Shown in pieces: positions 33,476-64,000 of a stretch of DNA of 64,000 nucleotides (position 1 is the first letter of the stretch; the number at the start of each line of letters is the position of its first letter). The translations under genes were made by a program, and so were the position numbers. Source of the stretch: Blasia pusilla (Eukaryota). A model generated the notes under the pieces. It did not search any database and was not told where the DNA came from. It saw nothing but the letters and a program-made list of their open reading frames with translations. The stretch is from the NCBI GenBank assembly GCA_050084515.1, contig CM114271.1:25110001-25174000 (forward strand), written 5' to 3'.

Positions 33476-34542
33476 TCTTTGCATGATATGGATTACAAAT
33501 GGGCGACTAACGATGGGGCAACCTAGCACCCGGCCTTCTGATTCGTGCACCCAAGAAGGTGTATAGCATGTAGTAGATGTATAGGGCTACCTCGGAGTTA
33601 GAGGGACCTAACCACTAGTTAGGGGGGCGAGTTGTGGTACACTTGTATTTGTGGATGTTCTCGTCTATGTTATGTATGTATGTGAGTATGGTATGTCAAC
33701 GATGTATGTTGTATGACGATGTGGATTTGCACGACAGATGTCATGACCATATGGATTATGTGGTAGAGTATATTGTGCTAGTAGAGGCCATACCTTATGT
33801 AGAGCCTTAGTGTCTAGGTAGAGATGCACTTTCATACATAGGGTTGGGGGTTACTCAGTTGAGCGTGACTTTTCCAGTAGGGCCCGCTCTTAGGTTGGAG
33901 GATATAGTGTGGAGTGCACTCAAAGAACAGTTAGTTCTTTGAGTTGAGCCTGTTGCGTTGAAAGTTAGCCTTGGTAGTGAGTAGAGCTCTTGGCTATGGT
34001 GGTTCCTGCAAGCTTTGACCTGGATTCTCTCATCGTGGAGTGGGTTTGGCTCGATTGTATGTGATTCTATACGTGGTTTATAACAATAGGTCTTTAAGTT
34101 GTGGTACACTTATGTTTGTGGATGCTCTCGTCTATGTTATGTATGTATGTGAGTATGGTAGGTCAGCAATGTATGTTGTATGACGATGTGGATTCGCACG
34201 ACAGCTCTCAAGCTCTCTCTCTCTTGGAAGTATACCCCCTTCCCTCTCCCAAGCCCTCTCAACGGTAACCTATGCTCGTAGGTCACCTCCTTGGCTTTGG
34301 ACTTGTTGTAGCGGGTCAAGGCCCACTTCCCAAAGTGGAAAGTCAACTATCCCTAACATGGAAACTTGCCCAAAATAGTAATTTTCTTTGTATGGCTCCA
34401 AATGAGCCGAAACGAAGGGAAAACCTACTCTCTCAGGTTTTGCAGGGCCTCAACAGGTCATCCTCGACCTGTTGGGCATGTCCTCCACAACTTGAGAAGA
34501 CGCTCTGCTAGATCCCACTGATCTATCCTAATAGTCATGATA

Positions 34543-37500: not shown

Positions 37501-38130
37501 GGTAGGGTTAGATGGCTATTTGGAGTTAGAAGGACCTTAGCACCATCTAGGGGATTATTGGAGATATTTTGGCACTTCTCGTCTAGTTGTGTGGACTCCA
37601 TGAGTTAGCATGGGACCGTTTGTGTTTATATGTGCATTCGATGATATCGATGTATGTTATGTAGCTATGTGTATGCGCACGATAATTATCACGTATTTTA
37701 GGATATATCGATGAGATCTAGCAGAGCGCCTTTGGAGATATTGGAAGACACCCTGAGGAGGTCGTGGATGACCTACTGAGGGCACGTGTAACTTGAGAGA
37801 ACAAATTTCTCCTTCGTTTCGGCTTATTTGAAACCATATTGAGGAACTTACTATTTTGGCTAAGTTTCTATTTTTGTATAGTTGACTTTATAATTTGGGA
37901 AGTGGCCCTTCATCCACTACATCATGTCAAGAGCCAAGGAGGTGACCTAAGAGCATAGGTTACCGTGGAGAGAGCTTGGGAGAGTGCAGGGGATATACCT
38001 CAAAGAGAGAGATCTTGAGAGCCCATTCTCTCTTTGTTGAACCTCTTGGCAAGACGCGGCGGAGCTATGGTCCTTCTTGCCTTGTGTGTGTAACCTGAGC
38101 CTCTCATTAGGAGAGTAGGTTTGGTTTGAC

Positions 38131-38168
<38 letters not shown>

Positions 38169-44059: not shown

Positions 44060-44364
44060 TGTCGTGCGTATACACATTGCTACACAACATACATCCCTGT
44101 CACCGAACACACACACAAACACACATGATCCCATGCTAACTCATGGCATCCAAACAACGAGACAAGAAGTACCAAAATATCTCCAATCGTCCCCCTAGCT
44201 GGTGGTTAGGTCCCTCTAACTCCAGATAGCCATCTATCCCTACCTACAATGACATACATCTTTCGAACGCTAAGAGCAAGAAGGTCGGGTGCTCATGTGG
44301 CCCCATCGTTAGTCGCCTTCTTGTCATCCATGTCACAAATACAAGTCAGAATGTAAAACTACCT

Positions 44365-47300
44365 ACTCTATGTACATCTGGGACACATCCATCATCCCTG
44401 AGGAACCCTAGTGAGAGGTGGCATCAAACATGTCATATGCCATCCTCTCGAACATCCATCATAGACTAGCATAGTGGCTGCACCACGGGCGGAACCACAC
44501 AACATACACCGCAAGCCTGCAGGAACTATTGCTAAGCTCAAATCAACTATAACGTCAATGTTTGGAAGATGACATGGTGCACAGTTATGCACATGGTCCT
44601 TCCAAACCATACCATCGCGTCCCTCCAGTAAGAGAACATCGGATGGCAAAACCTCACGCACTCTCAAGATGGTGCGCCCTGAAGTCACATCCAACATCGT
44701 GGGTGTCGTCTGCTGCAAGTAGACATAGTCTCCCTGATGAAACCTCTAGATAGTAGCTCGATAACTACCTCCCCGAATAGTCACATACCTCAACGTATCC
44801 CGATGGTGCGTAATTGCCAAGTTCTCAAATGTCATGGGCATCACTCTCCGAGAAAACTCAACCCTCTCAGAACATGCTTGCATCCATACATCAGGTTCAT
44901 CAAGGTTCAACACCTCACCAGTATCTCAACGAATGGCCGTTGGTAAATCTGGTTCTCGGCCATAAAGCAACAAGTATGGTGTGAAAGACGCTAAGGATGC
45001 TTGCTTGCTGAATCTGTATCCCATCGCCAACCACGGAAACTAAAGGTCCCAGTCTCCTAGGTGACCTCTCTGCAAGCCATACTTGTGTAGTCCTCTCTTC
45101 ACTGTCTACACAACCCGCTCCGCTAGTCCATCCGCCTCAGGATGATCTCAAGAAGTAGTGCGATGGTTGATCAGTGCCTGATCACACAAGGCCTGAAACT
45201 CCCCACGGAACTTTGTACCCTGGTCTGTCAACACCTCAGCTTGCACGCCGTAATGACTCAACACTCGATCTATGGAGGCATATGCAACTCCCTTACTCGC
45301 TTTGTCAGGCAATGCAACCAACTCTATCCACTTTGAGAAGTGCTCGACCATCACCAACACATAACGACTATGGCGCTCCGTCAAAGGCAAAGGTCCTGCA
45401 AAATCCAAACTCCATCTATAACCTAAACCCATGATCGAAAGTGGATGCAACTGTGGAGTTGGTGCATTGAACAATGCTCAGACTCGATCACACACCATGC
45501 ATCTGGCAACAAACTGCTGAACGTCAGTCTGCATGCCTCGTCACCAATACTGAATCTGGAGCAAGTTGTACGTCCGCTTCACTCCAAAATGACCCAACTC
45601 CTCGTGGGCATGACGCACCAAATATGCTCTCTGCAAAGGATGAGGCACTACACGCACTCTACCATCCTCCCACACTCGCAACACATGTGTGCCCTCAAAC
45701 CGGAACCGTGTGGCTCGTTGTAGGATCCGATCCCACTCTCTAGAACCCATTGTGCTCGCGACGCTGCCACTACGCAGGTACTCCAAGACCACTCCATCGT
45801 CGTGAATGTCTTGGCCACCTATCGTCTCCTCACTGGCCTCTAGATCTAAGGACTCTCCATCAGACATCGCCATCGAAGTCTCCACAATCTGGCTCTCCAT
45901 AGCCAACAAGCCCAAATAGGCTGACGCATGCTATCGGGCACCAACTCCTCATCACTCTCACCATGCCAACGAGCTCCAGTCGCATCTCGCTGACTCGGGT
46001 ATGGGTTACGGCTCAAACCATGGCCATCCTGGTTGAGCATCCTAGGTCTATGCACCACCTGGAAGTCATACCCCTGCAACAAAAGAGCCCACTTCGCAAG
46101 CTTTCCCGTAAGCTAGTCGGACTCCATCAACCACTTAAATGGTTGATGATCAGTAATGATGGTAAAGGGATTGCCGAATAGATAACATCTTAAATGTGCG
46201 ACAGTCCACACTGCAGCCAAGCACTCATCCTCATACGAGCTATACTTCGCCTTTGCAGCGTTATTTGAGCGACTAGCGTAAGCCACCACAAAACTCTCTA
46301 CCATCATCATCATGTTGGGTGAGCACGGCTCCAAGCCCCAACAAGCTCCAATCGGTATACAACTGGAAAGGATGCCCCCTGATCCGTTTCCTCAATATGG
46401 GCGCGGACGTCAATATGTCCTTGAGCATCTGAAATGCTCTCTCTTGCTCATCCCCCCAGTGCCACTCCTGATCCACCTTGTTCATCAAAGTTAGCGGCTT
46501 TGCAATTGAACTGAAACCCTTGACGTACCGTCAATAGAAGTTTACCAATCCCATGAATGCACGAACTTGACTCACATCTGTAGGGCATGGAATGCATGAA
46601 ATAGCCTCTACCTTCGTCTGTTGCACACCAAGGCCCCCAGGGTATATTGTATGACCCAAGTACTCAATCTAGTCGTAAAAGAACTTGCACTTGCTTGGAT
46701 GTAGCTTCAGCCCATGTAACTGCAATCGTCAAAACACCTCCTCTAGATGTCGCTCATGCTCCTCAACTGTGGCGCTAAAGACTACGATGTCATCAATATA
46801 ACACCTAGCAAAATCCAGACCTGCCAAGATTCTACCCACGACCCTCTGAAACTCAGCCAGGGCGTTCTTTAACCTGAATGGGAAGAACCGCCATTGGTAC
46901 AAAAACTCCTTCTCGTGAGGATCGATGCCCCAAAATGCCATCTTTTTTCTGTCCTCCAATCTGAGAGGAAGCTGATGGTATTTGGCTCGCAAATCCAATG
47001 AATTGAAGACCTTTGCATACCCAATTGCATCAAAGATCTCCTCAGGGATGGGCATGGCATACCTATTGGCCTTTTTTTGTTGATTGATAGGTCGGTAATC
47101 TCCACACATTTGCCTATCCGTCCAGTTTCCATGCACATCCTTCTTGGCGGGCTTGACAGTGGCAGATGCATACTCTCCATGCAACATCTCCACTAGTCCT
47201 GCTCCAACCAAGTCTGCTCCTACTCTGAATCTGAGCCCTCTCCATATCACTGTACCTGTAGGGTTTTTGGAAGATCGGCGTGTCACTCGACAGCTCAATG
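44365..47300 (-). pseudogene. pol: RT, RNase H, integrase and PHD finger of the family-B element
   Basis: CYIDDIVVFS, LYTDWSLLGLGAVL, ITDHQPFKWL, HAHEELGHFG, WSLDFAGP, VLTDQG, CMLCGS..DGCSRGWHMTCL. Confidence 0.9.
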
Positions 47301-47749
47301 CGGATTCATGGACCCTTCAGTGTACCCAAATCATGCATACTAAATGCAAAATAGCTCTTATAACTCCTAAGGAACTGGTGCATCCAACGCCGCTCTCCTC
47401 CTGTCAACTCAGGGCCCATATCTGGCTCCCAAGTCTCCATCATGACTACGATACGTCTCTCCGGAACGGATGTCAGTGGTTGCTATGGTGCAACCTCGTC
47501 TCAAATAATAGAACTGCCATCTCCACATGCAGTACTCGAAACCACGCTCGATGCGGTGGCTATCATCTCTTGGCGTACCTGCAAAACATCCCAAGAAGTC
47601 CAAGGGTGTCTCTCCCAATCACCCTTGGTGTGTCGATCTCCTTGGGTCTCGCCCCCAACCAGTGCCTCAATCGTCTCGGTAGGCATGGGGCTCACCAACG
47701 CAACTTTTGTGATTTGTCGCATCCTCAAACGACGTTGCTAAGCTACTCC

Positions 47750-48710
47750 TAAGTTGAAAATCCATGTCAAGCAGTTCAGGTCCATCGCCTGACCCGAGAT
47801 ATAACGTCGTGATGCCTCTGATAGTGACGGTACTGCCGTCACTTGTGTGGGGAATCCCATCGCTCACTCTCGCTCATGGGCGTTGGGCTCCATCAGCCTT
47901 TGTACTTGATCATCCCAAACCAGGTACAGAGGTACAGAGGCCAGGTCTCGCCTCCTTGAATGCATAGGAAGCGAGAAAACTCACCAATATGGGAAGGGCG
48001 GCTCGTGGCATGCCAATCCTGTTGACCACAGTCAACGACAGTTGATCATCGTGCCTCAGTGCCTGTGATCGACGGTCCGGATCCAATATAGAATCCACCA
48101 ACAAATCGGAGGGATGCTCCACTCTCGCATAAGCCCTCCGTAATACCTCATGTGGTACCAAGTTGGTCCACCAAAGACGCGGGAAATATGCTCGTGAACC
48201 CACACTCGCTGCATCTAACAACACCGTCATGCCGATCCATGCACGCACCTGATGTGCACTCGTCACCACACGGGGCCTCGAATCGGCCAAAATTGGCACA
48301 TTCTCCAAAATGTATGGTGGAGATTGATGCTCCTATTAATGTCGCAAGATTTGCATCATCTCCCAAAAAAACTTGGACCGAGTGTCAGCTAACCCGCTAC
48401 CTCGTCCAACACTCGATTGGCCCTGACACAGCCAACCAGCAATGACCAAATCTATGGTCCGTACCCGCTCCAAGTCCTACGCCCCCAATAATGAAATATC
48501 CCTCGATAGGGAACTCTAGTAACCCTTAATGGCAAACGTTGACAACAAGTCGGGAAAATGGAGGCGTAACAGCGCCACATGGTGAAGTGAAGCACGCCTC
48601 GCAACATCATCAATCTCCACATACAAAAACTCTTGCACGCGCACTCCAGCGTGCAAAACAGCAGCTAACCCAGTGCCAATCCCTCCAAAGAGATCCAACA
48701 CCCGAATACC
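47750..48710 (-). pseudogene. DNMT3-like C5 methyltransferase domain of the family-B element
   Basis: LDLFGGIGTG, YVEID, DLVIAGWLCQG (PC mutated to LC, ~48421-48452), ENV, PRLWWTNL. Confidence 0.88.
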
Positions 48711-48859
48711 CTTCTCCTTCTCTGGGATGCATCACATAATCGTGGTGGTGTCCAAAGGGGTCATAGCAGCACTCCTGCCTACTTGGGGTTCCTCTGACCC
48801 GTCACATTGTGGTGCAAGCGTCTCGCTCCACGCGGTCTGCACATGCTCAATGGCTAAGC

Positions 48860-50697
48860 GTCAAAGCTCCTCCGTAGAGCCCCAAAGCGGCACCTCTCCT
48901 CCACAAACTGATGTAGCTACCATGACACTCGTCTCCATAGAAATGTCAAGAACGGGAGGATCCTCTACATGGACATGTCCCTCAATCAAATCACTAGGCC
49001 AAGTGATGGCACTACTAAATGTTGCTAAGGTCGCCATCTCTCTTGGCCGTTGCTCGATCACTGCACTTGTGAATCGAACGGGTAATGAGCTAAGACGCCT
49101 ATCACCTGATTGCCATCCTGGTCTGTGGGATGCTGACTCCTCCCAGTAATCCAGGGAAAACCCCATCGGGTATAACACTGGTCCACCAACCAAGACGTCG
49201 TAGGACTCTGCATCAGTCACTATCGCCTTGGCTCGCAACACGGACTCATTTGTAGGATATCCCGGGCGAATCCTCACCATGACCTCCTATCGGGTGATAT
49301 ACTATGTGGTACTTGCTCCATCCAAGGATTTATGTATCCAAAATGGACAACGCTCCACATCAGCTCTCGTCAAGCTCAATCCTCAGAATGACGCTTTCCC
49401 CAACATCAGGGGTTGCGCTCCTGAATCCAACAAGACGCGATGCGGACTAAAAGCTCTACCTCCATGACTCACCAACCGGAAGACCTCTCCTCGGTTATCG
49501 AGCAACACAACACCAGGAGAAACCATGGCACGCTCTATCGCGGGTCTAGCGGGCATCTCCACCATCCTAGCAGCCGCAACCTGCCATAAATATGACGTGG
49601 ACGGCCCCAGCATCCGCTCCAAGGGCAGGTCCATCACCTCTTCTGCAATCACCTCTGATGGTGATGCAGGAACTCCAACTCTACGCTCACATACCATAGC
49701 GGCCAACCAAAAAATCTTGGCGGGTGTACCTCCCAACGTCATAACATCGGAAGCAGAAAATAAAGGAGCGCGGTACACAACGGTGGCCGCCCCCAACAAC
49801 GTGCTTGACACATGCCCCTCTTGAGCATCAGCAATAGGAGTCGTCGCACTTGCTTCTCCCATCTCCCTCCGTGCTTGCACACCAACAACATCACCAACTC
49901 TTCAGGAGCTCTGATCAAGACCCATCGATGGGTTCCTCATCGCCTCAAACAACGTGAAAGACTGAGGAAGCCTAGTCTGTTTCTTGGCTTCCCCTTGCAG
50001 AGTTGGATCCTCCATTTGGGCAACCCCGCACATCCAACCAGGATCCTCCATGTCTCTGGCTGCTCCATATGATGTCAATGCCACCGATCCACATCAGGTA
50101 ACCTCAATGCCATAGCGGCAATCTACTCCTGTAGCTGTTGTATCTGAGCAGCCATCCCAGCCTCACGCCTGGCGTCTCCCTCAATGCGTCTAGGTGGTGG
50201 GACTCTACCTCCTCCACGGGAAGCTCCACCACCTTGTCGGGCAACTCTACCTCCTCATCCCCCAACGGGACCACCTGGTGCACGACCTCTAACCCCACCG
50301 GACCGGCTACTCGCTCTGGTGCCCTCTCTGGCCCTCGGTCCGGACGTAACTCAGGATGTAAACTGAAACACTTGGCGCGTGTATGACCATACCTCTGACA
50401 ATAGTCACACTGATAACCTCCTAGTGCAGCACCATCTCCTCCTCCATGTTGAGGCACGTCCATGACCATGACGAGTGCAATCGCGCTCATGATGGGCTCC
50501 ACCACATGACCACCAAGTAATAGTAGGCGAATGTTGCTCGCCCATATGAAGGCGCAGGTCTCTGTGGCACAGCCTCTTGGTATCCTCCCTGAGCTCGCGG
50601 TGCCACAGTCGACCTATCTTGGAGTCCATGTTGTTGCACAGGTGGTGCAGACAATTGTGACTACTCTCGCCCAAAACCCATGGTGGCTACGCTTTCC
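48860..50697 (-). pseudogene. Gag zinc knuckles and protease of the family-B element
   Basis: WSCGGAHHERDC, CDYCQRYGHTRAKC, VLLDSGAQPLMLG, YDVLVGG. Confidence 0.85.
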
Positions 50698-50865
50698 TCT
50701 GTGTCATGACCATACGGATTATGTCGTAGAGTATGGTGTGCTAGTAGAGGCCATTCCTTATGTAGGACCGTAGTGGCTTGGTAGAGATGCGGTTCCATAC
50801 ATAGGGTTGGGGGTTACTCACTTGGGGGTGACTTTCCCAGTAGGGCCCGCTCTTAGGTTGGAGGA

Positions 50866-51080
50866 TATAAGGTGGCTTGCCCTCAAAGAAACGATCAGTT
50901 CTTTGAGTTGAGCTGTTGCGTTGGGAGTTAGCCTTGGTAGTGAGTAGAGCTCTTGGCTATGGTGTTTCCCGCAAGCTTCGACCTAGATTCTCCCATCGTG
51001 GAGTGGGTTTGGCTCGATTTTATGTGATTGTAAACGTATTTTATGACATTAGGTCTTTCACGGATTTCACTCAAAGAACT
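50866..51080 (+). promoter_or_regulatory. TATA box, predicted transcription start and complementary self-priming PBS of family A
   Basis: TATAA at 50866. AGTTCTTTGAGT at 50897-50908 is the exact reverse complement of ACTCAAAGAACT at 51069-51080. Same arrangement at 23107-23118 and 23280-23291. Confidence 0.7.
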
Positions 51081-54000
51081 TGAGTAGATCGATGGTAGCT
51101 TCGATTGTAGATCAGTAGGATCTTGTTAGGGCTGATTGTGTACTCAGCCGTGGATGTTCGCGGCTTGTTGCCTATGTTGGAGGTGTGAATCAGGTGCGTG
51201 GTTGGTTGGGAAAGAAGCGCCTTCTTTGAGAGCTTTCCAACGCTGCTTGTAGATCGCGGATTTCGTCAAGGGAGTTGGAAGTTATCAAGCATTGAAGATT
51301 CTGGTCGTGTTCGACAGTTTTTCTGATGTGGAGAGCTTGGAGTGCGGAAGCTCTGTTGAAGTTCATCCATATCGGGTGAGAGGTTCCTATTGCTACTTGT
51401 ATTGTGATCTCATGTGAAGCTATCTGCTCGAGTGCGTGGAGCGTTGCGGATTTCTGCGTGCATGAAACTTGGCGGAAGCGCTGTCGAATTTGCGGTTCTA
51501 GAGGTGTATGGACAGCAAGTTTGTCTGATTTTTAGCTCGAAATACGGAGCTCGGTTGTAGCTGAGTTTTTGTGGGGAGATAGCTATGGTGGTCAATTGAA
51601 TTCTGATCGAAACACATTTGATTTCGGTCACGTATTTGTGAAGTAATTTTGATCGAAATTTCGCAGACTAGCTCAAGGTCTGGCTATGGTGGACAGCGGA
51701 TCGGAGGGGCTGGTTGGTTGGTGACTCGTTCATTGTTGGAGACGCCTATCCCGTTTGGGGCGCCCTGGTTGGACCTCTCTCCATAGCGAAGCATGGCGAA
51801 GCGTGGCGAACGGGGCATGTCTCGGCGTTTTGAGGCTTCAAGGCAACTCGTGGTAGCTCGGGGCGAGTGGGCGTGAGAGGCGGAGCAAGGAGCAAGGAGC
51901 AAGCAAGCAAGCTTGCTTGCTTGGGCGTGAGGCAATTTTTGCAGGATTTGGGATTTGAGTTTTGCATAAGCTGGTCACCCATCTTTGGGCTAATCGCTGG
52001 AGGGCGCTTAAGCTGCTGAGTTCTTAACTATGCGTGTGTCTGTTGTTGTAGCTCATTTGGTGTTGTTTGGAGATGTGTTAGGCGCTTTATGCATCTCAGG
52101 TTTTTGGTTGATGTACCTCTAGCGCATAGTACGGTGTAGCCTCTCCATGCAGGTGATATTTTCAGGTGCTTTGCGAGTTCGACTAGCACGTCATCGACCC
52201 CGGCGGAGTAGCTATTGCGTTAGAATTGTGTGGTGGGTTTTGTGGATTGAGGGCACCACATTTGGTGAATTGTGTTACCTTGATTTCCATTTGCGATTGG
52301 AGGTTGTCGTTGGACTTCTGTGTTTGGATCCCCTCCATCGTGCTTCTTCTTGCTTGGCGCCCATTGTTAGGGTTGGCTGATTTCGAGTAGTGTTACTCCT
52401 GTGTGCTACCGGTAGTAAGGCTGGAGGGATGACGAGTAGACTGTGGGAGACTTCTTGTGGTGATGACAAGTTAGATTGCCTACACCCATAGCTAGTAGAG
52501 CTAGAATAGTATAGCGACATCGACGTCACTTGGTTATTTGGTGGTGGTAATTTGGCGATGGCGCGGCATCGGCGTTGGTCATCACGGAGCTGTCGGGTGG
52601 TCTGGTTGGGGACCGTGGTGCGGACAGTGGTGGTTTCACACGGAGTGGATTTAGGTATTGGCTACCTTTTCCACGCCGGCGGTTGATGAAGAGGAGGGCG
52701 AGGGTGTTCCAAACACCGAGTCTTCTACGTTGTTATTGAGTGTTGCGGCTCCATTGATTTGGGACATGGGCCGGTGGATATGGGGCCATGAAGGGCCCAC
52801 GGCGATACTCGGGTGCGTGGGCACCATTGAATTGGAGGACTTCATGCAGGAGTTTGATCGTGGTGTGATATGCAGATGTTGCGGGCACGCCACGTTGTTT
52901 ACACCCTTCTTGGCTTGGAAGGGTTGTTTCAAACACTTGGAAGGACCACCCATGGATGATTACCATGAGTTTAGGAAAGACCATGTTCTTTGAGATTTAG
53001 GCGTGGAGACAATATTGGTCTCCAGGCTATGTGTCTATCACCCATGGTGGTATTGGTAGTCTTGCTCTTACTATGCCCGGCCGACCCGGCGTTGAGTGGT
53101 GCAGTGCGAGCCGGAGTGGGGGTACCGGTGGAGGTACTAGTGGAGGTACTAGTGCCCCACCATGGTTTAGCCCGATTCTGAGAGTTCTTCAAGAGGTTGA
53201 AGAAGAACTATCAAGGAGTGAAGACGGAGAAGTTGAGGAATCTTCAGGACTTTGAGCGAAAGGCGGTGAGAGTCTTCGTGAGGCAAACAGCGTATCACGG
53301 CGACGCTTGATTTCAATTACCAGGGTGTGGCGAGGATCAGGCGGTCGATTTTGGTATGGGATCTTGGGCAGAGATTTGCGCCGTAGGGTGCGTGATGCTA
53401 CTCTTATGAGTGATGATTCACCCACATTGACCCATGTGTTTGCTCTATTTGAGAAGATTGAGCTTAACATGGTGAAGGAGAGAGTGGTGACATCCGCATT
53501 GATGAGGGATACAACTACTACTTTCGTGTTTAGCGCCCACCTCACGTCTCGTAGTAGTGGTGGTGGTAGTAGTAGTGGGAGTCGTGGGGTACACGCGACC
53601 TCAGTCAAGTCCTAGAGGACATTTGTGCAGAGACCATTGCCTTCATTTTCTGCCCCACAGCAAGGGCGATCATGTTGGACATGTGGAGGTGATCATGTTA
53701 GGAAGTTTTGTCCCCAAGAGGATGGGAGGCGGACTTTGGAGGATGGGCCTCGATCGGCCCCAACTCGGTGTGATCATTGCGGGAGACTAGGTCATCCTGA
53801 GGCGTTGCTTTGATCTTCATCGAGTTGAGATCAGGGCGTGGCCGTGGTGGAGTAGCTCCGAGAGGCCGAGGTGGTAGAGGTGGTAGGGGTGGTAGAGGTG
53901 GACCGGTGGTTGGAGAGCCTACGGTGGCTACCCCTACCACTACGACAAGTCGCTATGGTGCTAGGATTGGCTTGATTGGAGCATAAGTTGGCTACTATGG

Positions 54001-55384
54001 TGGTATCCGGCATAGATCGGGTTTGGGAACAAGGGCTTCCACCTCTTATGGAGGGATGATCTCTCTTATATGGCGAAAGACGAGGTTGAGGCATCAGCTG
54101 CGATTATGAGAGGAGCCACTCGGCGTTAGAGCCACGTGGTGCTCTTGTGGAGTTGGACCCCAGAGGGATGAGGGGGAGGCGAGGCTAGGCTTCCCAGTCA
54201 TTCTTGTTGTGTGAGGTGCTTAGGACTCCATCCATGGTTCCTCGCAGCCTATTTAGCCGCAGTGGGGACCGAGGCATCTACATCGCGTGTAGTAGACACG
54301 GATGCGACATCAATGCGATGTGCGGATGGCAACCGGTGTTAGGATCCCCATTGTTTTTGGCCACGGAGGCGATGGCTTTAGGAGTTGACTTAGCTCTGTA
54401 TTTGATCAGCGACCACGTTGTGTGAGCGTGGGGTATTCTTGCTGCTACGTGTTGAGGTGGATGAGGGTGTTGCGGTGGAGCGACCCTCTATATCGGGAGT
54501 AGCATTGAGTACCGGTGCTATTTGGCGGCGGCGGCGAAGATGGATGCATTACCGGCCCGCGCCGACCATTGATCGTGAGAGGCTTACACCTGGTGTATGT
54601 ATGTTGGACAACCGGGTGGGATCTTCCGATTGGTGAGTCCTATAGGGCAGTGTATATACCGAGATAGAGTCTTGTTAGACTCGGTGCCCAACCTTTGATG
54701 TTGGGAAAGCGGCATGTATTGGTTTGGGTATTCGGAGGTCGAGCTTGAGCCTTGCCCATTCGATTCAAACATCACTTGGAGGAGCCAATGATAGGTCTCA
54801 ATTCATGACACGGGAGAAGTTTTTATGCAGTTGAGACAGATCATGCGATCGATAGCCCGGTTGGGAGTATCTGCGGTAGTCACATCGGCCGTAAAGTCGT
54901 ATGATGTACTAGTTGGAGGAGCGATTGTACCCGATGGGTTTTGGATGGATTCTTGGGTGAGACAGCGACTTACAGACCTGGTTGGCGGTCCGGGATGGGC
55001 GTATGAGCCAAGTTCTGTGAGATTTATTTCTTGGGCTCGACCGGGGGGTCATCCCCAACAGTGTTAGCATCGTGGCTGGTTTTAGTGGAGTAGTCACTTG
55101 GCTTGGAGACTTTTGGAGGGTAATGTTTTACGCTATGGATTCTCTGCATGAGGAGGTAGAGGAGGTCCCTATTTTTGCAGCAAAGTGGCATCCTCATCGT
55201 TGGATGTGCCACTTTGGAGTTAGCGGTGCACTACGGCGGGAGGCGTCGCCTAGTGCGAGGAGGCTTGGTGTGAGGTGTTATACCTCACGAGGAAGAGGAG
55301 GCCCCACGGCGGACTCCTACTTCAGTCGATTAGGTTATCCCCTTTGGATACTACACCCCTTGTATGGCAAATTATCCGCCGGAG

Positions 55385-56310
55385 GGCATTTGTGTGTTAG
55401 ATCTCTTTGGTGGGATTAGCTTGGTTTGGTTTGGCTGCAATGTTGCGGGCCGGTATTCTGTCTTGCGGAGATACGTGTATGTGGGGCGAGATGAGCGGCC
55501 CGAGAGAGTCTCATCCCGACATATTGGTCGATTGATGCGGAGATATCCTGAGTTGTTGTCGCCATCGGCTATTCGTGGGGTACCAACGTGCTTTACCATC
55601 ACACATTGCATTGTTGGCGCAGGATCTTGAGAGGGTTGGTCTGTGGATTTGGTGATTCTTTGGATGGCCATGTCGAAGTCATACACGTCTTTGGTCGTGG
55701 TGAGGATTACATGACCCTAGGTCTCGATTGTTTTGGGAGATATTACGGGTGTTACAACATCTTGAGTTCATCAAGCACGTGCTCTAGCTAACATTGGAGA
55801 ATGTTCCATTGTTAGGTGACACTCGGACCGGATGATGGCGAGTGTTCATGAGGTGCGGTCTTGGATTGGACCAGCGGTGTTGTTGGATGGCTTGAGTTGG
55901 CTCGCGTGCACATAAATCCACGCTTGTGGTGGACAAACTTGTTGCCTAGGGAGGTTCTACGTCGAGCATATGATGCAGTGCAGCGGGATCCTCGCCTCAC
56001 AGTGGATAGTATCTTGGATATTGGGCGACTTTCTCAAGTGGTGAGGGTTATTGATCGGTCACCCATGGCGGTGGTGAACCGTGTGGGCCGACCTAGGATG
56101 GCACTACCCACATTTGTGAGTTTTCCCGTCACATGCTACGGGGAAGGTGGTCCGGGGCTTGTATGGGATTCTCATGTCGGCGGTTGGTGGAGCCTAACGC
56201 TGATGAGAGAGAGCGTGCGATGGGATTTGCTCTTGGTGTGTGGCGGTTGCTTCTATTTTAGGCTTCGAGGCTTCATGTGAGTCAGGCCATGGACCTGAAT
56301 TGTTTGACTT
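55385..56310 (+). pseudogene. DNMT3-like C5 methyltransferase domain, family A copy 2
   Basis: GICVLDLFGGIS, GWPC (~55662), ENV (55797), PRLWWTNLLP, QAMDL. Confidence 0.88.
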
Positions 56311-56679
56311 GGATTTTGAGTCTTGGTATGGCGGCGGCGTCGACTTTGGACTATGTCTGTGGGTCTTCCACCCCTTGTAATGAGCTTGATGGCTACCGGG
56401 ATGGTAGCGGCATCGGTGGGGCGAGGAGAGAAGTATTTTGCATCCTTGGAGTAAATGGGATGTAATGGTGGGCATGTGGAGTTGGTTGCTCATCTTTGGT
56501 GGAGGAGTTATTTGCTCGGATGATGGTGTAGCTAAGGGTGTACCATCTTGTGAGGGGGTTGCGTAGCGACCAATGGCATCGTCCTCTCCCTCTAGTGTGC
56601 CAATGGAGGAGACTTGAGAGCCATTACTTGGGCCCAAGCTTACGGGGGGAGGTGAGAAGCGGCGCTTGACACAATTCCT

Positions 56680-59600
56680 ACGTGCTTATAGGAGTTGTTT
56701 TGCCTTTAGCATGAAGGAGTTGGGTTCTTTGGTTGGACCCGGTATCACGGATTGATTTGGCTAGTGATCGCCAATCTTCCGTCGTCCCTACCGATATAGT
56801 GATATGGAGAAGGACCTCATTGAGTAGGGCGTTGGACCTTTTGGAGCCTGGATTAGTGGAGTTGTCGCATGGAGAGTATGCATCACCCCTGTCATGCCGG
56901 CTAAAAGGATATGCATGGCAACTACGGATAGGCGGATGTGTGGAGATTACCGTCCTATCAATCGGCAAACCAAGGCGGATAGGTATGCCATGCCTACACT
57001 GAGAGATCTTTGATGTGGTGGGACAGGCAAAGATTTTCAGTACTTTGGATCTTGAGCGAGATACCATCAATTGCCGATTCGGGAGAGTGACAAGGCCAAG
57101 ACAAAGACATTTTGAGGTGTCAACTCTCATGGCAAGGATTGTTTGTACCGGTGGAAATTCTTACCCTTTGGGTTGAAGAATGCACTGCCGAGTTTCAAAG
57201 AGTGATGGATAGGATCCTAGTAGGGTTGGATTTTGTTCGGTGTTACATTGATGATATCTTGGTGTTGATAACACGGTGGAGGAGCATCGGATACATTTGA
57301 AGATGGTGTTTGAGCGGTTGAAAGCTCATGGTCTACGTTTGCATCCAGGAAAGTGTAAGTTCTTCCATGAGGATGTTGAGTACTTGGGTCATGTGATCTA
57401 TCCAGGTGGTTTGGGAGTTCAGCAAGCAAAGGTGGAGGCTATTGCACTTATTCGGCGTCCGGTAGATGTGAGTAGAGTTCAAGCATTCATGGGATTGGCG
57501 AACTACTATCGGAGGTATGTGAAGGGATTTAGTGCTATGGCAAAGCCTTTGAACCAATTGCTGAAATCAGATCAAGAGTGGCACTAGGGAGATGATCAGG
57601 AGAGAGCTTTTGTGGAGCTTAAGGCCCAGTTGTGGCGGCGCCTATCTTGAGGAGACCTATCAGAGGGCGCCCATTTCAGTTACACACTCATTGGAGTAGG
57701 TTCGGACTTGGAGCGGTGTTGACACAACATGATGATGAGCACATGGAGTTTGTGGTGGCCTATGGAAGTCGTTCGAATAATGCAGTGGAGTCGCGCTATA
57801 ATTCATATGAGGGAGAGTGCTTGGCAGTAGTGTGGGATGTGGCACACTTTAGGTGTTACTTGTTTGGCACACAGTTTACCCTTGTTACTGATCACCAGCC
57901 GCTCAAGTGGTTGATGGAGTCGGACAAGTTTACAGGGAAGCTTGCACGGTGGGCTCTTATCTTACAGAGTATGACTTCCAGGTGGTACATAGACACTGGA
58001 GTTGCCAACCTTGATGATGGGTTGAGTAGGAACCCATATACTAGCCAAGAGGATACAAGCGGGGCTAGATGGCATGGCGAGGTTGATGAGGAGATGGTGC
58101 CATGTTGGCATGCATCCGTCTTTTTATGTTGGTTAGGGGTGGACTCTAGTATGGAGGACCACATGATATCTTACTCTAATCAGAGGGTAGATGGCCAGCC
58201 TTCAAATCCTAAGGTTGGAGATGGTGGTACGGATCAGCGTGATATTCATGATGATGCGTTGGTGTTGGAGTTCCTACGGACCAGTAGGGTGCAGGGCATA
58301 GTGAGTGCCAGGAGGCGAGACCGTGTTCTTCAACGTGCTAAGAGGTATCGATTGGAGGGAACACATATTCTCCGCATGTGGGAGGATGGTAGAAACAGTA
58401 GTGCCACATTTGGCTCGAGAGAGGCGCATTGTGCGACATGCCCATGAGGAGTTGGGACATTTTGGGGTAAAGCGTCGTATAACTTACTCCTTGGCGATAT
58501 TGGTGGCGTGGCATGCATACTCAGTGCAGCGATTGGTGTCACGTTGTATGGTTTGTGACCGGGTGAGGGCATCATTTAATGCCCCTACACCACAATTACA
58601 TCCCTTGCCTATTATGGGGTTGGGTTATCGTTGGAGTGTGGACTTTGCGGGACCGTTACCGTTGGTATGCGACATCATCGATATGTGTTGGTGATGGTGG
58701 AGCACTTCTCCAAGTGGATTGAGTTTGTGGCATTACGGACAAGGCAAGTGAGGAACGGCGTATGCATTTCTGGATAGAGTGCTTAGTCATTTTGGTGCAC
58801 CGGTGAAGTCTTGACCGACCGAGTGCGGAGTTTGGGTGAGTTTTCAGGTCTTGTGTGACAAGGCGTTGATTGATCATCGGACCACATCTCGAGATCATCA
58901 GAGGCGGATGGTTTGGGTGGCGTGTGGTTCATACGGTGAAGAGGGCATTGCGCAAGTATGGCCTCTGAAGGGGCATCTTGGAGGCTAGGATATTCGGTTG
59001 CCATGGTTAGCCATGGGGTATAGGTTCGATCGCCAAGCATCCTTGGCTTCCTTCTCACCTTATTTTTTCATTATCGGCCGAGATCGGACTTGCCAAAGAA
59101 GCAATTGCGTCGGGAGTCTAGTGAGGTGGTGAACCTTGATGACCGAGAGATGTGGATGAGGGTGTGTTCTCGGCGGGCGGAGCTCTTTCGGAGAGTTATG
59201 CCAACATCCTTTGAGAATCTTGCCATTGCTCAACACAGGGGATACGTTGCGGTATGCAACCATTCGGGAGTGGAGGTTATCGACCATCGATTAGTAGGTT
59301 CCATGTGGGGACTATGTCTATTTGCAGCAGATTGCCCGACAACGTTGGATGTGACGGCAGCCGTACTATTTTTCTGAGTCGCGAGGTGTTAGCTACGGAG
59401 TTCTCATGTTGGAGGGTCGTGATGGAGTTGTTTGGAAGGACCATGTGCGTAATTGTGCGCCATGTCATCTTCCAAATGTGGATGGTATCTTGTTGACCCA
59501 AGCTTAGCCATGATACGTGCTAGCTTGTGGTGCATGTTGTGTGGTGGGTCTTGTACTGTAACGCGGCCCGTATGTTGGTGTGTGATCGGTGTTCTAGGGG

Positions 59601-59690
59601 TTGGTACATGATGTGTTTGACTCCACGTTTGGATGTTGTTCCTACTGAAAGGTGGGTTTGTCCTCGATGTACTTAGGAGAGGTAGATGAC
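56680..59690 (+). pseudogene. pol: RT, RNase H, integrase (HHCC + DDE) and PHD finger, family A copy 2
   Basis: CYIDDILV, VTDHQPLKWL, HAHEELGHFG...CMVCDR, WSVDFAGP, PHD at ~59530-59672. Confidence 0.9.
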
Positions 59691-60430
59691 TTAATCTTTG
59701 CATGATATGGATTACAGATGTGCGACTAATGATGGGGCAACCTAGCACCCGGCCTTCTCATTCGGGCATCCAAGAAGGTGTATAGCATGTAGTAGATGTA
59801 TAGGGCTACCAGGAGTTAGAGGACCTAACACTTGATTAGGGGGCGAGTTGTGGTACACTTGTGTTTGTGGATACTCTCGTCTATGTTATGTATGTATGTG
59901 AATATGGTATGTCAGCGATGTATGTTGTATGACGATGTGGATTCGCACGACAACTGTCATGACCATACGGATTATGTCGTAGAATATGGTGTGCTAGTAG
60001 AGGCCATTCCTTATGTAGGACCGTAGTGGCTTGGTAGAGATGCGGTTCCATACATAGGGTTGGGGGTTACTCACTTGGGGGTGACTTTCCCAATAGGGCC
60101 CGCTCTTAGGTTGGAGGATATAAGGTGGCTTGCCCTCAAAGAACGATCAGTTCTTTGAGTTGAGCTATGCGTTGGGAGTTAGCCTTGGTAGTGAGTAGAG
60201 CTCTTGGCTATGGTGTTTCCCGCAAGCTTCGACCTAGATTCTCCCATCGTGGAGTGGGTTTGGCTCGATTGTATGTGATTGTAAACGTGTTTTATGACAG
60301 TAGGTCTTTCACGGATTTCAGTTGTGGTACACTTGCGTTTGTGGATACTCTCGTCTATGTTATGTACGTATGTGAGTATGGTATGTCAGCGATGTATGTT
60401 GTATGACGATGTGGATTCGCACGACATCCG

Positions 60431-61340
60431 CCATGTTGTGCTCAATGTTCTTGACGATCCTAAAAACATCTCTCCAAGTAGGGGAGGTGGTCATAAAAAG
60501 CATCCCATTCCGCACCCCTGTCCGCAGGGTCTGGTCCAACATCATGTACCATGACTAGATAGCCTAAGCCTGCGTCACTCCTTGAGTGATGTTGGTCAAC
60601 CGGCGCAAGCAAGTGTAAGTAAGCCTCACGCAAACTCTCACCCGGGCGCCTCTGGAAGTTGTGGATGCTCCGCAACTTTTCCGTCCATATCCCGTGGTAG
60701 CTCGCTCTCAACTCAGCAAAGAACTCAACCACAGGGTTGAACGTGGGACCAACCCGACTAGACGGTGCAATTGCTCCAGTGCGAGTGACCTCTCCTAAAA
60801 TGTCACTAGTGGAAGAGGAAGTAGCCTCTCCTGACTCCTCCTCCTCCTCTTCATCTGGGAACGGCTCCATCCATGACACATAATGTGGGTCATAGTAGAG
60901 CCTCCACGCCTAGATCTCACGTGCACATCTCTGAGAGAGCTCATGGTAATCGTCCATGGGCGCCTCCTCTAAATGCTGGAACATACCGTTCCATGATGTA
61001 AACGGGTTGGACTCTCTAGAGTTCCAAGCCCGTTGTGAGTCACACCAACTCCTAAACTCCCCAATGAAGTCGTATAGCTCTATAGTGCCTACAACACCCG
61101 AAAATCTACACGGTCCTCTATCCCGGTCGTCCATCTCGTACGCCCAATTGGTAGGACCACTCAATATGTACGATGGATCACTAACACACTCCTCTATACG
61201 CTCACTCTCATCTGAAGACGACACAGAAGGAGATCGAGGTGGTCTCTTACGTGGAGACCCTTGAGCTACTCTTAAGTCCACTACCTCGCCTCTCAAAATC
61301 TTGAAAAGACGCCGTGATGGCCCTTGTGCCCCTCTCACAC
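60431..61340 (-). pseudogene. gag: N-terminal Gag of the family-B element
   Basis: GTIELYDFIGEFRSWCD...PMDDYHE and FNPVVEFF...TEKLRS...GESLREAY, homologous to ORF 24917-25831. Confidence 0.85.
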
Positions 61341-62947
61341 GATCACTCTCAATCTCGTGAGTAATCCCTCAATCACTCAAACTAAACATGCGACACTAAA
61401 TCTACACTCTCTCACTGAGACGTGTGTTGTGCAGCAACAAGCAGCGTGGTGCGGCAAATCAACATATCTATCGTCTCATCGACAAACCATCCTCAACTTT
61501 GGACATCTCACACAGATCTCTATCCCCTAAACCCATACATCATCAACACGAAACCCAATATTCCAAATAACTTCCCAATATCCGGAAATCCCTCACACGT
61601 GCAAGGTAAGAGACAAGAATGGGTAACATGACAATAATGTCGATATCGCTCCTTGGAAACTGCAAATCTTGACCGTAACTCGATCATGAAGATAACTCCT
61701 CCAATCAGCAAGTCGTACTCCTCTCGTACCAACGCTGCTCAAACCTCCTAATTGTGTGGTGCGGCTTTAGCGGTCCAGTGCGGCATAGGCAGCACGGAAC
61801 GGCTACAAATGGCACGGCACTCGGGAATGGGGTGCGGCACTCGGCGGCATACCCTCCTCGATCAGCAATTCACACGCTCTACTCCTTAGTGAAGGAGCGG
61901 CTCCGCGATCAAGATGGTGCGGTGCGGCCACGAGCGGCAAGGCACGGCAATCGGCGACGCGTTGTGGCTACGGGCGTCATGACACAGTACTCAATCGTCA
62001 TCGAGCGGCTACCAATCACAACATAGCAGCATTAAATGAAAACTCAAACACCATAACCCGGGGTCACATGCCATCATTGGTTAATGACGAAACAACGATG
62101 GCCAAACCAAAGTACGTGGTGGCGGCGCAAGTCAAAGAATCAACGGTGGTCGTGGAAGACCCTCCACTCCATAATGGCGGCAATGGCAACCAAAGGGTGG
62201 ACAACAGACGAACGCGGCTCGGAGCAGCGCTAGGCGGCGGCCGACGGTGGACGGTGGACCGTTGATGGGGACGGCCGACCGTTGACGGTTATGGTTGACC
62301 GTTGACCATTAACGGTTAACCTTTGACGGTTATGGTTGACCATTGACTATTGACGGCAGACCGATGATGGTGACTATGACGGAGACGGCCGCCGCCGGCG
62401 CGACGGCTGGTTTAGGGTTTGAACAATTTAACCCTAAAAATCACCTAGCAATGGCAATTTTGCAAGATTGACCATAACTTTTATTTTGCAACTCCAAATT
62501 GCACACCGTTTAGCGCACAGTGTGCACAACTTCACGATCTACAAGAGCGTCAAAAAATATTTGGAATCAAACATTCCAATAAAAATTGACGAGGACTGTC
62601 GTAAAGCCAAATGTCTTTTTCTCCTACACATAACTCGATAGCTCTTCCGCGCTGATTTCTCCCAAAAAAAATGTAAAATATGTGAGAACACAAATCAGCA
62701 AGCTACATGGTGCTTCGAGAGCACCAGTATGGGGCGACTTGGCCCCATACTCAATCCCTATCAAAAATTGCACAACGCTTCCGCGTGCCACTCTTCCACA
62801 CGAAAAATGGGCAAATGAAATGTCACAAGTAAGCGGCTCTTGCTCTGGTGAGCACTCCCATGAACCGCTAAACGGGGAATATGATCCCCAACCTGCAAAA
62901 CCAGCGAGCGACCAACGAGCTCCCCCATGAAGCTCTCTCACTCATTC

Positions 62948-63150
62948 ATTCTCTCTTTGTAAAATAAGATCAAATCTCTCTCACAACTCTATAGTTTTCA
63001 CGTGTGTCTCTCAATGTCAAACCAAACCCACTTTCCTAATGAGAAGCTTGGGTTACACACACAAGGCAAGCAAGACCATAGCTCCGTCGCCTCATGTCAA
63101 GAGGTTCAACAAAGAGAGAATAAGCTCTCAAAGTCTCTCCTTGAGATATA
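62948..63150 (-). promoter_or_regulatory. TATA box, predicted transcription start and self-priming PBS of family B
   Basis: Minus strand: TATA at 63150, ATTCTCTCTTTGT at 63121-63109, complementary ACAAAGAGAGAAT at 62960-62948. Confidence 0.68.
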
Positions 63151-64000
63151 CCCCTACCCTCTCCCAAGCTCTTTCCATGGTAACCTATGCTCCCAAGTCG
63201 CCTCCTAAGCTCTTGACCTGATGTAGGAGGTTAAAGGCCACTTAACAAAAATAGAAAATCGATCATATATTCAAAATGATATTCACCTAAAATAGTAAGT
63301 TTCTCAATATGACTCCAAATGAACCGAAACGAAAGAAAAACATGTTCTCTCAGATTTCCCGCGGCCTCAATAGGTCATCCTCCACCTATTGAATCTATCT
63401 TCCACTATTCACAAAGGTGCTCTACTAGATCTCACCAATCTATCCTAAAAAACGTGACACTCATCTCGTGATCGACCACTTCGTCCCGCAAATTGCACGG
63501 ATAACTGGCTCATCCAACCGTCACCTGACCGCCACCCTTGCCCATAAGCAAGCTGTCTCCTCTCAAAAATCAAGGATGAATGATAGGGATATCCTTCGTA
63601 CTTCTAATAAAATCTTAGGGAAAGGTGGCTATGAGTGTTTCTTTCCCTATGCATAGAGGGGACCTTGGCACTCAACATCCAGTAGTAACCACCAACAATT
63701 TTGACACCAAATGTTCACAACTTGACTCCAATTTTAACACTTTCCTCAAACCTAATCCGACAGCTCCGCAAGGATTACGAAGTCGACCGTCTTCTTTCCC
63801 AAACGGGAATTCAATTTTCACTATTTCCATAGCTTTTATGTAGAGACAGTCTTCCAACAACGCTTGTTTTATTGGAATGCTTGTAAAGGAATCAGAAATC
63901 CCGTTTGCACCTCAAATACCCTTCTTTCAAGTTTCGTTCTTTCCAAATAATAACCGCCCGACTGTCGGAGCGTACTTGTATCATTCAAAACCACTTAGAA

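Follow-up and report, generated by a model that had tools for sequence, protein, structure and literature searches.

Split repeats and an LTR-internal palindrome in a Gypsy-DNMT3 retrotransposon clade suggest integration from joined LTR ends

The window, i.e. the whole stretch of 64,000 nucleotides analysed here, carries two plus-strand copies of one retrotransposon family, the second of which is nested within a related minus-strand element of a third family. Repeat self-comparison and direct reading of copy 2 (50702-60426) gave the layout A1-internal-B1-NN-A2-B2, and this repeat order, which a sequence-only reading had assigned to both copies, was recovered in each of them. The features of copy 2 and its flanks, all on the plus strand, are as follows.

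50698-50701, plus strand: 5' target-site duplication, TCTG (TCCG in the empty site)
50702-51069, plus strand: repeat A1, beginning TGTCATG
50864, plus strand: TATA-like box in A1
50897-50908, plus strand: complement of the putative self-primer, in A1
51069-51080, plus strand: putative self-priming, PBS-like word ACTCAAAGAACT, complementary to 50897-50908
52850-53522, plus strand: gag-like region, degraded (tblastn with the L050 open reading frame, whose own Retrotrans_gag match is weak, E 0.06)
55289-56539, plus strand: cytosine-5 DNA methyltransferase-like region, degraded (the homologous parts of copy 1 and of the minus-strand element match Pfam PF00145)
56567-58000, plus strand: reverse transcriptase and RNase H (RT_RNaseH, E 6.5e-31)
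58401-59545, plus strand: integrase region, degraded (matches the DDE integrases of relatives; Integrase_H2C2 weak, E 0.14)
59557-59673, plus strand: C-terminal PHD finger
59838-59846, plus strand: polypurine tract AGGGGGCGA, immediately 5' of B1
59847-59952, plus strand: repeat B1, with the 3' end CACGACA
59953-59954, plus strand: spacer AC between B1 and A2
59946-59961, plus strand: palindromic junction (att) CACGACA-AC-TGTCATG, within the LTR as defined by reverse transcription
59955-60320, plus strand: repeat A2
60321-60426, plus strand: repeat B2; the A2/B2 joint equals the U5 end plus the U3 start
60427-60430, plus strand: 3' target-site duplication, TCCG

Repeat comparison identified copy 1 as a member of the same family with the same layout; its features, its empty site and the minus-strand element are listed below.

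22913-34203, plus strand: copy 1
22909-22912 and 34204-34207, plus strand: target-site duplication of copy 1, GCTC
22913-23280, plus strand: A1 of copy 1
25939-25980, plus strand: CCHC knuckle of copy 1
27442-28422, plus strand: DNA methyltransferase of copy 1 (PF00145, 6e-7)
33631-33736, plus strand: B1 of copy 1
33737-33738, plus strand: spacer GA of copy 1
33730-33745, plus strand: palindromic junction (att) of copy 1
33739-34096, plus strand: A2 of copy 1
34098-34203, plus strand: B2 of copy 1, ending with the copy
37925-38120, minus strand: empty-site paralogue of the copy 1 target, uninterrupted, with a single GCTC
44060-63459, minus strand: related element of the third family, in A-internal-B form only, with copy 2 nested inside it and a perfect TGAG/TGAG duplication at its outer ends
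63459-63248, minus strand: A of the minus-strand element
44187-44060, minus strand: B of the minus-strand element

The 4-bp target-site duplications proposed for both copies by the sequence-only reading proved exact for copy 1 (GCTC/GCTC), while in copy 2 (TCTG/TCCG) 3 of the 4 letters match, the mismatch being a C-to-T change at a CpG. Both duplications are confirmed by uninterrupted empty sites: the sequences on either side of copy 1 have exactly GCTC as their overlap on the paralogue of its target, and in run X2 four contigs connect the 5' flank of copy 2 straight to 60427 (agreement 0.99). Among 14 elements with both ends visible, the duplication at A-start/B-end was perfect in 6 and reached at least 3 of 4 letters in 10, with 42 of 56 letters matching, as against 0-2 perfect cases and 13-26 of 56 letters at the eight shifted offsets that served as a chance control for these elements. 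It was unconvincing in the other four (2 of 4 letters in L005 and L036, 1 of 4 in L046 and L051). A2 and B2 do not form a separate insertion with a duplication of its own, as the four letters 5' of A2 and 3' of B2 differ; it is the interval from A1 to B2 that has the duplication and the empty sites.

Judged by its domain order (gag, C5-DNA methyltransferase, reverse transcriptase, RNase H, DDE integrase, PHD finger), the element belongs to the Ty3/Gypsy retrotransposons and, among these, to the streptophyte Gypsy-DNMT3 clade. The pol order RT - RNase H - integrase agrees in copy 1, copy 2 and the minus-strand element by Pfam and tblastn. The minus-strand element encodes, according to Pfam, a DNA methyltransferase, H2C2 (1.3e-14), rve (5.5e-12) and a PHD finger, L050 likewise matches rve (1.3e-13) as well as Integrase_H2C2, and the residues D, D and E, with a 35-residue spacing, are invariant in 18 relatives, which bears out the earlier assignment to Gypsy elements with a DDE integrase. 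Copy 2 itself is too decayed for the Pfam rve model, so that neither rve nor the methyltransferase was detected by Pfam on its whole-frame translations, and its integrase is indicated by the weak Integrase_H2C2 hit together with the tblastn matches. PF00145 lies directly 5' of the reverse transcriptase in copy 1, in the minus-strand element (2e-8) and in L050 (7e-9). Retrotrans_gag goes no further than the weak match mentioned above, with a CCHC knuckle present in copy 1, and no protease family was matched by Pfam in the decayed copies.

The topology of the repeats is that of Ngaro and PAT elements, and we therefore considered a DIRS/Ngaro-like mechanism in which a tyrosine recombinase acts in trans or was missed in decayed copies. 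Tyrosine-recombinase elements are not known to make a target duplication. Here the split repeats A1...B1A2B2 are accompanied by 4-bp duplications; the HMM search that the sequence-only reading had called for returned neither PF00589 nor any other Pfam recombinase domain in the six frames of copy 2 (E<=0.01); and the relatives listed carry rve, with PF00589 in none of them. We regard this mechanism as the least probable of those considered, with hardly any weight left to it. The pair of complete, identical LTRs with host junctions at the LTR ends that characterises Ty3/Gypsy elements is replaced here by a split A ... B-NN-A-B.

The polypurine tract before B and the self-priming site after A1 support a definition of the LTR made by reverse transcription as B+A. 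The sequence-only reading had placed this LTR at 59849-60320 (TGTGG...TTTCA); its B+A composition stands, whereas its start lies at 59847 (GTTGTGG), immediately 3' of the purine tract. A G-rich purine tract adjoins the B start in both sequence families of split elements, and in family 2 B begins with ATACATG, without an initial TG, so that the ends defined by reverse transcription are not integrase-like there. No TGG-type site was found beside A1 on reading, and a tRNA-type primer binding site was replaced by the self-priming reading. The putative self-priming word measures 12, 13, 16 and 12 nt in Wc2, Wc1, L023 and L027, respectively, lengths seen in 0 of 200 shuffles, and 10-11 nt in L013, L014, L041 and L050, which 3-11 of 200 shuffles equalled. 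Its sequence varies between families while complementarity is kept, L027 being changed on both sides, and a TATA box lies about 30 nt 5' of the self-primer complement. The A2/B2 joint equals the U5 end plus the U3 start in Wc2, L044, L016, L005, L013, L023, L034 and L042, and is short by 2-3 letters in L014, L032 and L036 and by about 10 in Wc1.

As the sequence-only reading had claimed, the host junctions map to an internal inverted repeat, the palindrome CACGACA-NN-TGTCATG, which lies inside the B+A LTR. Since host junctions and duplications are located inside the LTR, they cannot derive from the ends of linear cDNA. Across 20 elements the two halves of the 7+7 core of the palindrome are conserved at 0.90 and 0.96, compared to 0.60-0.69 in the flanks, and the spacer is 2 nt long in all 20. 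The palindrome follows the PHD finger on the coding strand, at a distance of 200-400 nt, in 19 loci as well as in both window copies. The difference between AC and GA in the two copies had invited the view that the spacer is newly made in each cycle; this was rejected, because the spacer is R-Y in 18 of the 20 elements, with transitions around a CAGCTG centre; inheritance with decay is the better reading.

A1 and A2 of copy 2 are 99% identical between 50702-50890 and 59955-60143 and 98% between 50917-51069 and 60168-60320, and the alignment of the B regions (59846-59961 with 60320-60435) shows 95% identity. With A1/A2 at 98-99% and B1/B2 at 97%, the repeats are closer within copy 2 than between copies 1 and 2 (86-94%), which we read as regeneration in each cycle. 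This bears on the suggestion that integrated copies move as DNA, the integrase serving as a transposase of Ginger or IS3 type on the A-start/B-end inverted repeats and the split repeats simply being inherited. Terminal inverted repeats and a 4-bp duplication would suit a DDE transposon, and abutted ends with a 2-bp spacer recall the circle or tandem junctions of insertion sequences. However, the identities of 97-99% within copy 2 are what regeneration gives, the start of B and the end of A are precisely where the polypurine tract and the covarying self-priming word have been conserved, and reverse transcriptase and RNase H are retained across the clade, all of which makes DNA transposition very unlikely in our view.

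The split layout was found in 17 unique elements of two sequence families, namely the two window copies and 15 independent metagenome loci, and in the source organism the family reaches very high numbers, with 37,760 contig pieces in one run; two runs that may be RNA gave a few contigs. In a tree of reverse transcriptase and RNase H, built after 11 of 84 rows had been excluded for insufficient length, all 17 fall in one clade of 41 rows (SH-aLRT 91), and 5 loci with conventional LTRs fall outside it. The sequence-only reading would have been overturned by a majority of conventional BA...BA copies, and none was seen within the clade. L029, which is intact and only distantly related, shows another repeat pattern.

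The explanation that we consider best, and somewhat more probable than all others together, is that the two ends of the cDNA become linked, whether in a 2-LTR circle or in some equivalent form, before the integrase opens the palindrome, as pieced together from integrated and mostly degraded copies. Transcription would start in A about 30 nt after the TATA box (around A+195) and end in A2; the 5' end of the RNA would fold back on the word right after A1 and prime the minus strand, as in Tf1, and the purine tract before B1 would supply the plus-strand primer. The resulting cDNA would be [B-NN-A]-internal-[B-NN-A], and its U5 end (the end of A) would be joined to its U3 start (the start of B), giving the circle or an equivalent tandem-LTR form. 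At the palindrome CACGACA-NN-TGTCATG of the PBS-proximal LTR, we infer, the integrase would then cleave both strands just 3' of the CA; the CA-3'OH ends so produced would be recessed behind 2-nt 5' overhangs, as retroviral ends usually are once processed. Insertion of these ends with a 4-bp stagger and trimming of the overhangs would give A-internal-B-NN-A-B with a 4-bp duplication, predicted to be the sole integrated form again able to yield terminally redundant RNA.

A circle with two equivalent sites also predicts a mirror form, A-B-NN-A-internal-B. None of the 21 elements in which the 5' region could be inspected has this form, a count to which contigs cannot add, as all short junctions are common to the mirror and the observed form; a bias or a secondary loss must therefore be assumed. 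A second junction match 5' of A1 in L042 is due to a fragment of A in inverted orientation and does not make this locus a mirror-form element. The absence of the mirror form also weighs on a scheme in which a 1-LTR circle recombines homologously with an existing solo A-B, with no action of the integrase on the junction. One crossover within A would, by reasoning alone, yield exactly the observed layout, but crossovers within B would yield the mirror form, expected in about 22% of cases by length and seen in none of the 21. Such recombination also requires an earlier solo insertion at every site, while the empty sites are without a solo repeat, and we hold it to be highly improbable.

About 11 unique elements have the form A-internal-B only (L002, L009, L018, L024, L025, L030, L046, L051, L054, L071 and the minus-strand window element). 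Rather than deletions, these may be what the integrase makes directly from linear cDNA, and they bring in the possibility that the integrase acts on linear cDNA throughout: it would cut the palindrome of the 5' LTR and insert both new ends, after which the host would end-join the original termini, i.e. the end of A to the start of B. In a variant, the integrase would use the A-start in the 5' LTR together with the B-end in the 3' LTR and would give A-internal-B directly. Perfect duplications in three A-internal-B elements (L054, L030 and the minus-strand window element) agree with this, as do the small losses at the A/B joint in some copies, which are expected of end joining. On the other hand, a chromosome break would have to be kept open until repair, the absent mirror product is predicted equally by linear cDNA and by the circle, and the A-internal-B form is equally explained by deletion between B1 and B2; the two forms occur intermingled on the tree. 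On balance we judge integration from linear cDNA to be unlikely, though deserving of some weight.

Our results suggest that a joined LTR-LTR form, commonly taken for a dead end, is what an ordinary integrase works on in this clade. For the broader proposition we put the chances at about even: throughout the clade, a joined LTR-LTR intermediate may be obligate and the DDE integrase may open a templated palindromic att in the LTR, which would make this the first natural retroelement lineage with 2-LTR circles or their equivalent on-pathway, and split repeats a mark of circle-based integration whatever the enzyme. Should the joined LTR-LTR intermediate be borne out, the clade would offer a natural system in which to study junction cleavage by integrase, one structural logic would link the split repeats of DIRS/Ngaro elements with those of this Gypsy clade, and a layout noted but left unexplained in 2018 would be accounted for. 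There is also a practical side. Standard LTR finders assume matching LTR ends and a duplication, and, judged by this working principle, we expect them to misplace the borders of this abundant family.

The closest known element is KnitGypsy-Dnmt3 of Klebsormidium nitens, for which the Fig. 4c legend of de Mendoza et al. 2018 (PMC5890265) gives DIRS-like repeats together with Gypsy domains, the combination also present here. Like our elements it has a Gypsy pol with a DNA methyltransferase and repeats reported in the order A-coding-B-A-B, and the K. nitens protein P0037 matches the window RT/RNase H (E 6e-45). Klebsormidium elements are reported to evolve under purifying selection. Section 9 and the legends of that paper are without ends, duplications, att, priming sites or mechanism (PMC5890265), and the elements described here come from bryophyte-like hosts and include a PHD finger. 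The sequence-only reading knew of no description for a Gypsy element: the layout itself was already in that legend (PMC5890265), and our literature search found no published analysis of the ends, duplications or mechanism of such elements. Self-priming has precedents in the Gypsy elements Tf1 and sushi (PMC6317226), which resemble those studied here in having no tRNA-type PBS and a word after the 5' repeat complementary to a word 3' of the TATA box in the repeat; in our elements the pairing is suggested by sequence and covariation.

The split A1-internal-B1A2B2 repeats of Ngaro and PAT elements (DIRS order) are read as the mark of integration from closed or joined cDNA; these elements encode a tyrosine recombinase and no DDE integrase and are not known to make a target-site duplication, whereas here a DDE integrase, 4-bp duplications and inverted ends of TG..CA type are found. 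Textbook LTR retrotransposons and retroviruses insert the ends of linear cDNA, and LTR circles are regarded as by-products. In IS3/IS30/IS21-type circle or tandem junctions, abutted inverted ends with a spacer of a few bp are the substrate of a DDE enzyme; those junctions arise from DNA copies and take their spacer from donor flanks, unlike the present one, which would be copied through RNA with an inherited 2-nt spacer. In vitro, the integrases of foamy virus (PFV; PMC1180852) and HIV-1 (PMC1905944) cut the palindrome at the 2-LTR circle junction, so that a DDE integrase and a palindrome of abutted LTR ends yield processed ends, as proposed here. Retroviruses acquire the palindrome only through ligation of their cDNA ends, on circles that are usually side products, whereas in the present clade the ligated cDNA ends (A/B) are not the proposed cut site and the palindrome is templated in every LTR.

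A direct-repeat search over 49000-62000 yielded three pairs for copy 2 of the element: A1 50702-50890 and A2 59955-60143 (99% alike), a second A stretch, 50917-51069 and 60168-60320 (98%), and B1 59846-59961 and B2 60320-60435 (95%), A and B being the repeat parts. Exact borders were then set by reading the sequence, and the order of the parts is identical in copy 1.

Repeat parts and priming sites of the two copies (copy 2 by direct reading).
22913-23280, plus strand, A1 of copy 1
33631-33736, plus strand, B1 of copy 1, then spacer GA
33739-34096, plus strand, A2 of copy 1
34098-34203, plus strand, B2 of copy 1
50702-51069, plus strand, A1 of copy 2, internal region next
51069-51080 with 50897-50908, plus strand, candidate self-priming pair of copy 2, by complementarity (TATA box at 50864)
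59838-59846, plus strand, purine tract of copy 2
59847-59952, plus strand, B1 of copy 2, then spacer AC
59955-60320, plus strand, A2 of copy 2
60321-60426, plus strand, B2 of copy 2

Both copies have the outer ends TGTCATG... (5') and ...CACGACA (3') and the inner joint CACGACA-NN-TGTCATG, and the permuted order A1-internal-B1-NN-A2-B2 described in the sequence-only reading is borne out in both and recurs across the clade. A1/A2 and B1/B2 of copy 2 are 97-99% alike versus 86-94% between the copies, as expected from regeneration at each cycle. Scanning of metagenome contigs with protein alignment gave 80 loci, whose layouts were determined by self-comparison and targeted searches. Fifteen unique loci have B1-NN-A2-B2 downstream of the PHD finger (L003, L004, L005, L010, L013 (=L012), L014, L016 with B2 cut short, L017, L023, L032, L033, L034, L036 (=L037), L044 and L058), and A1 is present upstream in every split-repeat locus offering about 9 kb. 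Outside this count stand L041 and L050, whose contigs end too early, L042, with truncated B2, and L021, with B-NN-A and B2 absent. The split-repeat elements form two sequence families with LTRs barely alignable between them; in an RT/RNase H tree built by a quick method (11 of 84 rows dropped, being under 170 residues) their rows all fall within one clade of 41 (SH-aLRT 91), and the five conventional-LTR loci (L045, L065, L069, L073, L075) lie outside it. The layout is confirmed as a clade-wide property. A distant intact relative, L029, has an ORF of 1463 aa, contig ends overlapping by 99 nt and a 66-nt repeat either side of a unique 413-nt stretch (1-99, 6743-6808, 7222-7347).

Copy 2 is heavily decayed, with more than 100 stops per frame. 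Pfam detected RT, RNase H (6.5e-31), a PHD finger and, weakly only, the integrase zinc domain; no recombinase family was found in its six frames, including the tyrosine recombinase for which an HMM check had been proposed. Its RT/RNase H ORF matches proteins of liverwort, Klebsormidium, Closterium and Chara with the architecture RT - RNase H - H2C2 - rve - PHD, and a DNA methylase in some. At least four related elements are present in the window, with these further domains:

27442-28422, plus strand, DNA methylase of copy 1 (E 6e-7)
Minus-strand element, H2C2 (E 1.3e-14)
Minus-strand element, rve (E 5.5e-12)
Minus-strand element, PHD (E 5.7e-8)
Minus-strand element, DNA methylase (E 1.9e-8)

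An alignment of 18 relatives keeps D, D and E at 35-residue spacing without exception, and together with rve and H2C2 of the minus-strand element these residues uphold the initial call of a DDE-integrase Gypsy. The pol domains, the methylase and the lack of a recombinase assign the element to the Gypsy-DNMT3 group, known from Klebsormidium (PMC5890265). The PHD finger closes the integrase at 59557-59673, at 44371-44510 and in metagenome loci. Chromoviruses have a chromodomain at the integrase end, and the PHD finger in its place may be another mode of chromatin reading for targeting.

The 4-bp duplications claimed for the outer ends stand as GCTC/GCTC in copy 1 and TCTG/TCCG in copy 2, and two independent empty sites confirm that both are real. 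For copy 1, the 5' and 3' flanks align to an uninterrupted paralogue in the window (37925-38120, minus strand) and overlap there by exactly GCTC; for copy 2, four contigs of sequencing run X2 (agreement 0.99) link the 5' flank straight to position 60427, reading ...CTCTCC-TCCG-CCATG. In the same run the sequence past the B end is heterogeneous (6 contigs, agreement 0.47) and that past the A end is internal leader (agreement 0.73-0.95). Flanks read in both window copies gave no duplication of its own for A2-B2. Among 14 elements with both ends visible, the true ends gave 6 perfect 4-bp matches, 10 at 3/4 or better and 42/56 letters, versus 0-2 perfect and 13-26 of 56 letters at 8 shifted offsets; the end letters match at only 2/4 in L005 and L036 and at 1/4 in L046 and L051.

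A G-rich purine tract adjoins the B start in both sequence families. Directly 3' of A1 no tRNA-type site was found; the word at this position is complementary to one within A, about 30 nt downstream of the TATA box. The pairing extends over 12 nt in copy 2, 13 in copy 1, 16 in L023 and 12 in L027 (reached by 0 of 200 shuffles) and over 10-11 nt in L013, L014, L041 and L050 (reached by 3-11 of 200). The word varies between families with complementarity kept, L027 being changed on both sides, and fits self-priming of the type known from Tf1. Purine tract and pairing word thus define the reverse-transcribed LTR as B-NN-A, in agreement with the B+A proposed earlier; its start in family 2, ATACATG, is not of the integrase type. 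A contig of run X13 (record 23, run guessed to be RNA; window 60137-60320) begins at A+183, near the predicted transcript start, and reaches the leader; contigs cannot show starts.

Since A-internal-B-NN-A-B is a circular permutation of BA-internal-BA, the A end and the B start must have been linked, and the opening of the molecule must have fallen at the palindrome within the PBS-proximal LTR. In the proposed pathway the A end of the cDNA would be joined to the B start and the integrase would open this palindrome by cutting both strands of CA-NN-TG 3' of CA; the 3'OH ends would thereby be recessed, each leaving a 2-nt 5' overhang, and a 4-bp stagger at insertion would yield the 4-bp duplication. 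Retroviral ends usually have this recessed form after processing. According to PMC1180852 and PMC1905944, retroviral integrases are able to cleave junction palindromes in vitro. Judged from the integrated copies, joining followed by opening by integrase is somewhat probable. The initial observation is thus confirmed across the clade, and its interpretation by circularisation and integrase opening is plausible and the best available, the joined intermediate being an unproven proposal.

In 20 elements the 7+7 palindrome core is conserved at 0.90/0.96 versus 0.60-0.69 in the 24-nt flanks, and every change in the core is a transition. The spacer is 2 nt in 20/20 (GC 6, AC 6, AT 4, GT 2, TC 1, GA 1), and R-Y in 18 of these, with the centre CAGCTG or a transition variant thereof; it reads as inherited and decaying through C-to-T changes, and this R-Y pattern disfavours a spacer newly made each cycle. 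In run X2, position 59953 (spacer 59953-59954) has G for A in 2059 of 2076 depth units.

The mirror product A-B-NN-A-internal-B, expected from opening of the other LTR, is found in none of the 21 elements that show their 5' region. About 11 unique elements, namely 10 loci (L002, L009, L018, L024 (=L040), L025 (=L026), L030, L046, L051, L054, L071) plus the minus-strand element at 63459-44060, have A-internal-B only and are scattered among full forms in the RT/RNase H tree. Either a built-in bias towards one LTR site explains the missing form, or the mirror form, with A repeats longer and closer, collapses to A-internal-B, and the 11 such elements versus 17 full forms are compatible with a split that was equal at first. 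Another option is that the integrase also acts on half-sites of linear cDNA, giving A-internal-B. As for the joining of A to B, the A2|B2 joint consists of U5 end plus U3 start in copy 2, L044, L016, L005, L013, L023, L034 and L042, and is short by 2-3 letters in L014, L032 and L036 and by about 10 in copy 1; low-depth variants also occur among the contigs. In copy 1 the absent letters lie between two TTTCA words (34086-34097), which could be loss at joining or later deletion.

The region around copy 1 is a stack of nested insertions, and two further relatives lie in the window:

63459-44060, minus strand, third-family relative (A 63459-63248, B 44187-44060, duplication TGAG/TGAG)
37556-38140, plus strand, diverged relative (RT from 34552; ends B-AT-A, A 37688-37900)

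The former has a perfect duplication and no A2-B2, and copy 2 is nested inside it. In the latter, A is followed by the family's 5' leader in place of B2, so that its LTR is bordered by internal sequence at either end, perhaps through inter-element recombination or as a tandem form. Copy 1 is inserted in the leader of an inverted third-family element (34328-34541, minus strand, A starting at 34541), the stretches beside copy 1 being 22812-22912 and 34204-34303. Tandem repeats of three 351-nt units and of about 67-nt units (1902-2903 and 15893-16150) are also present, and a direct-repeat pair about 5.1 kb apart (3334-4237 and 8431-9342, 95-96% alike) is probably an unrelated LTR element.

Literature searches found no mechanistic account of the layout: it is not described in the passages found of Neumann et al. 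2019, streptophyte Gypsy-DNMT3 is named in passing only in the portion seen of a 2026 preprint, and section 9 of de Mendoza et al. 2018 (PMC5890265) is silent on ends, duplications and mechanism. The att site, duplications, priming logic and proposed pathway appear to be new. The layout itself, which the sequence-only reading had held to be undescribed for a Gypsy element, has been published before, in a single line: the Fig. 4c legend of de Mendoza et al. 2018 (PMC5890265) gives KnitGypsy-Dnmt3 a DIRS repeat structure with Gypsy domains, and as far as this legend goes the window elements resemble it in combining DIRS-type repeats with Gypsy domains.
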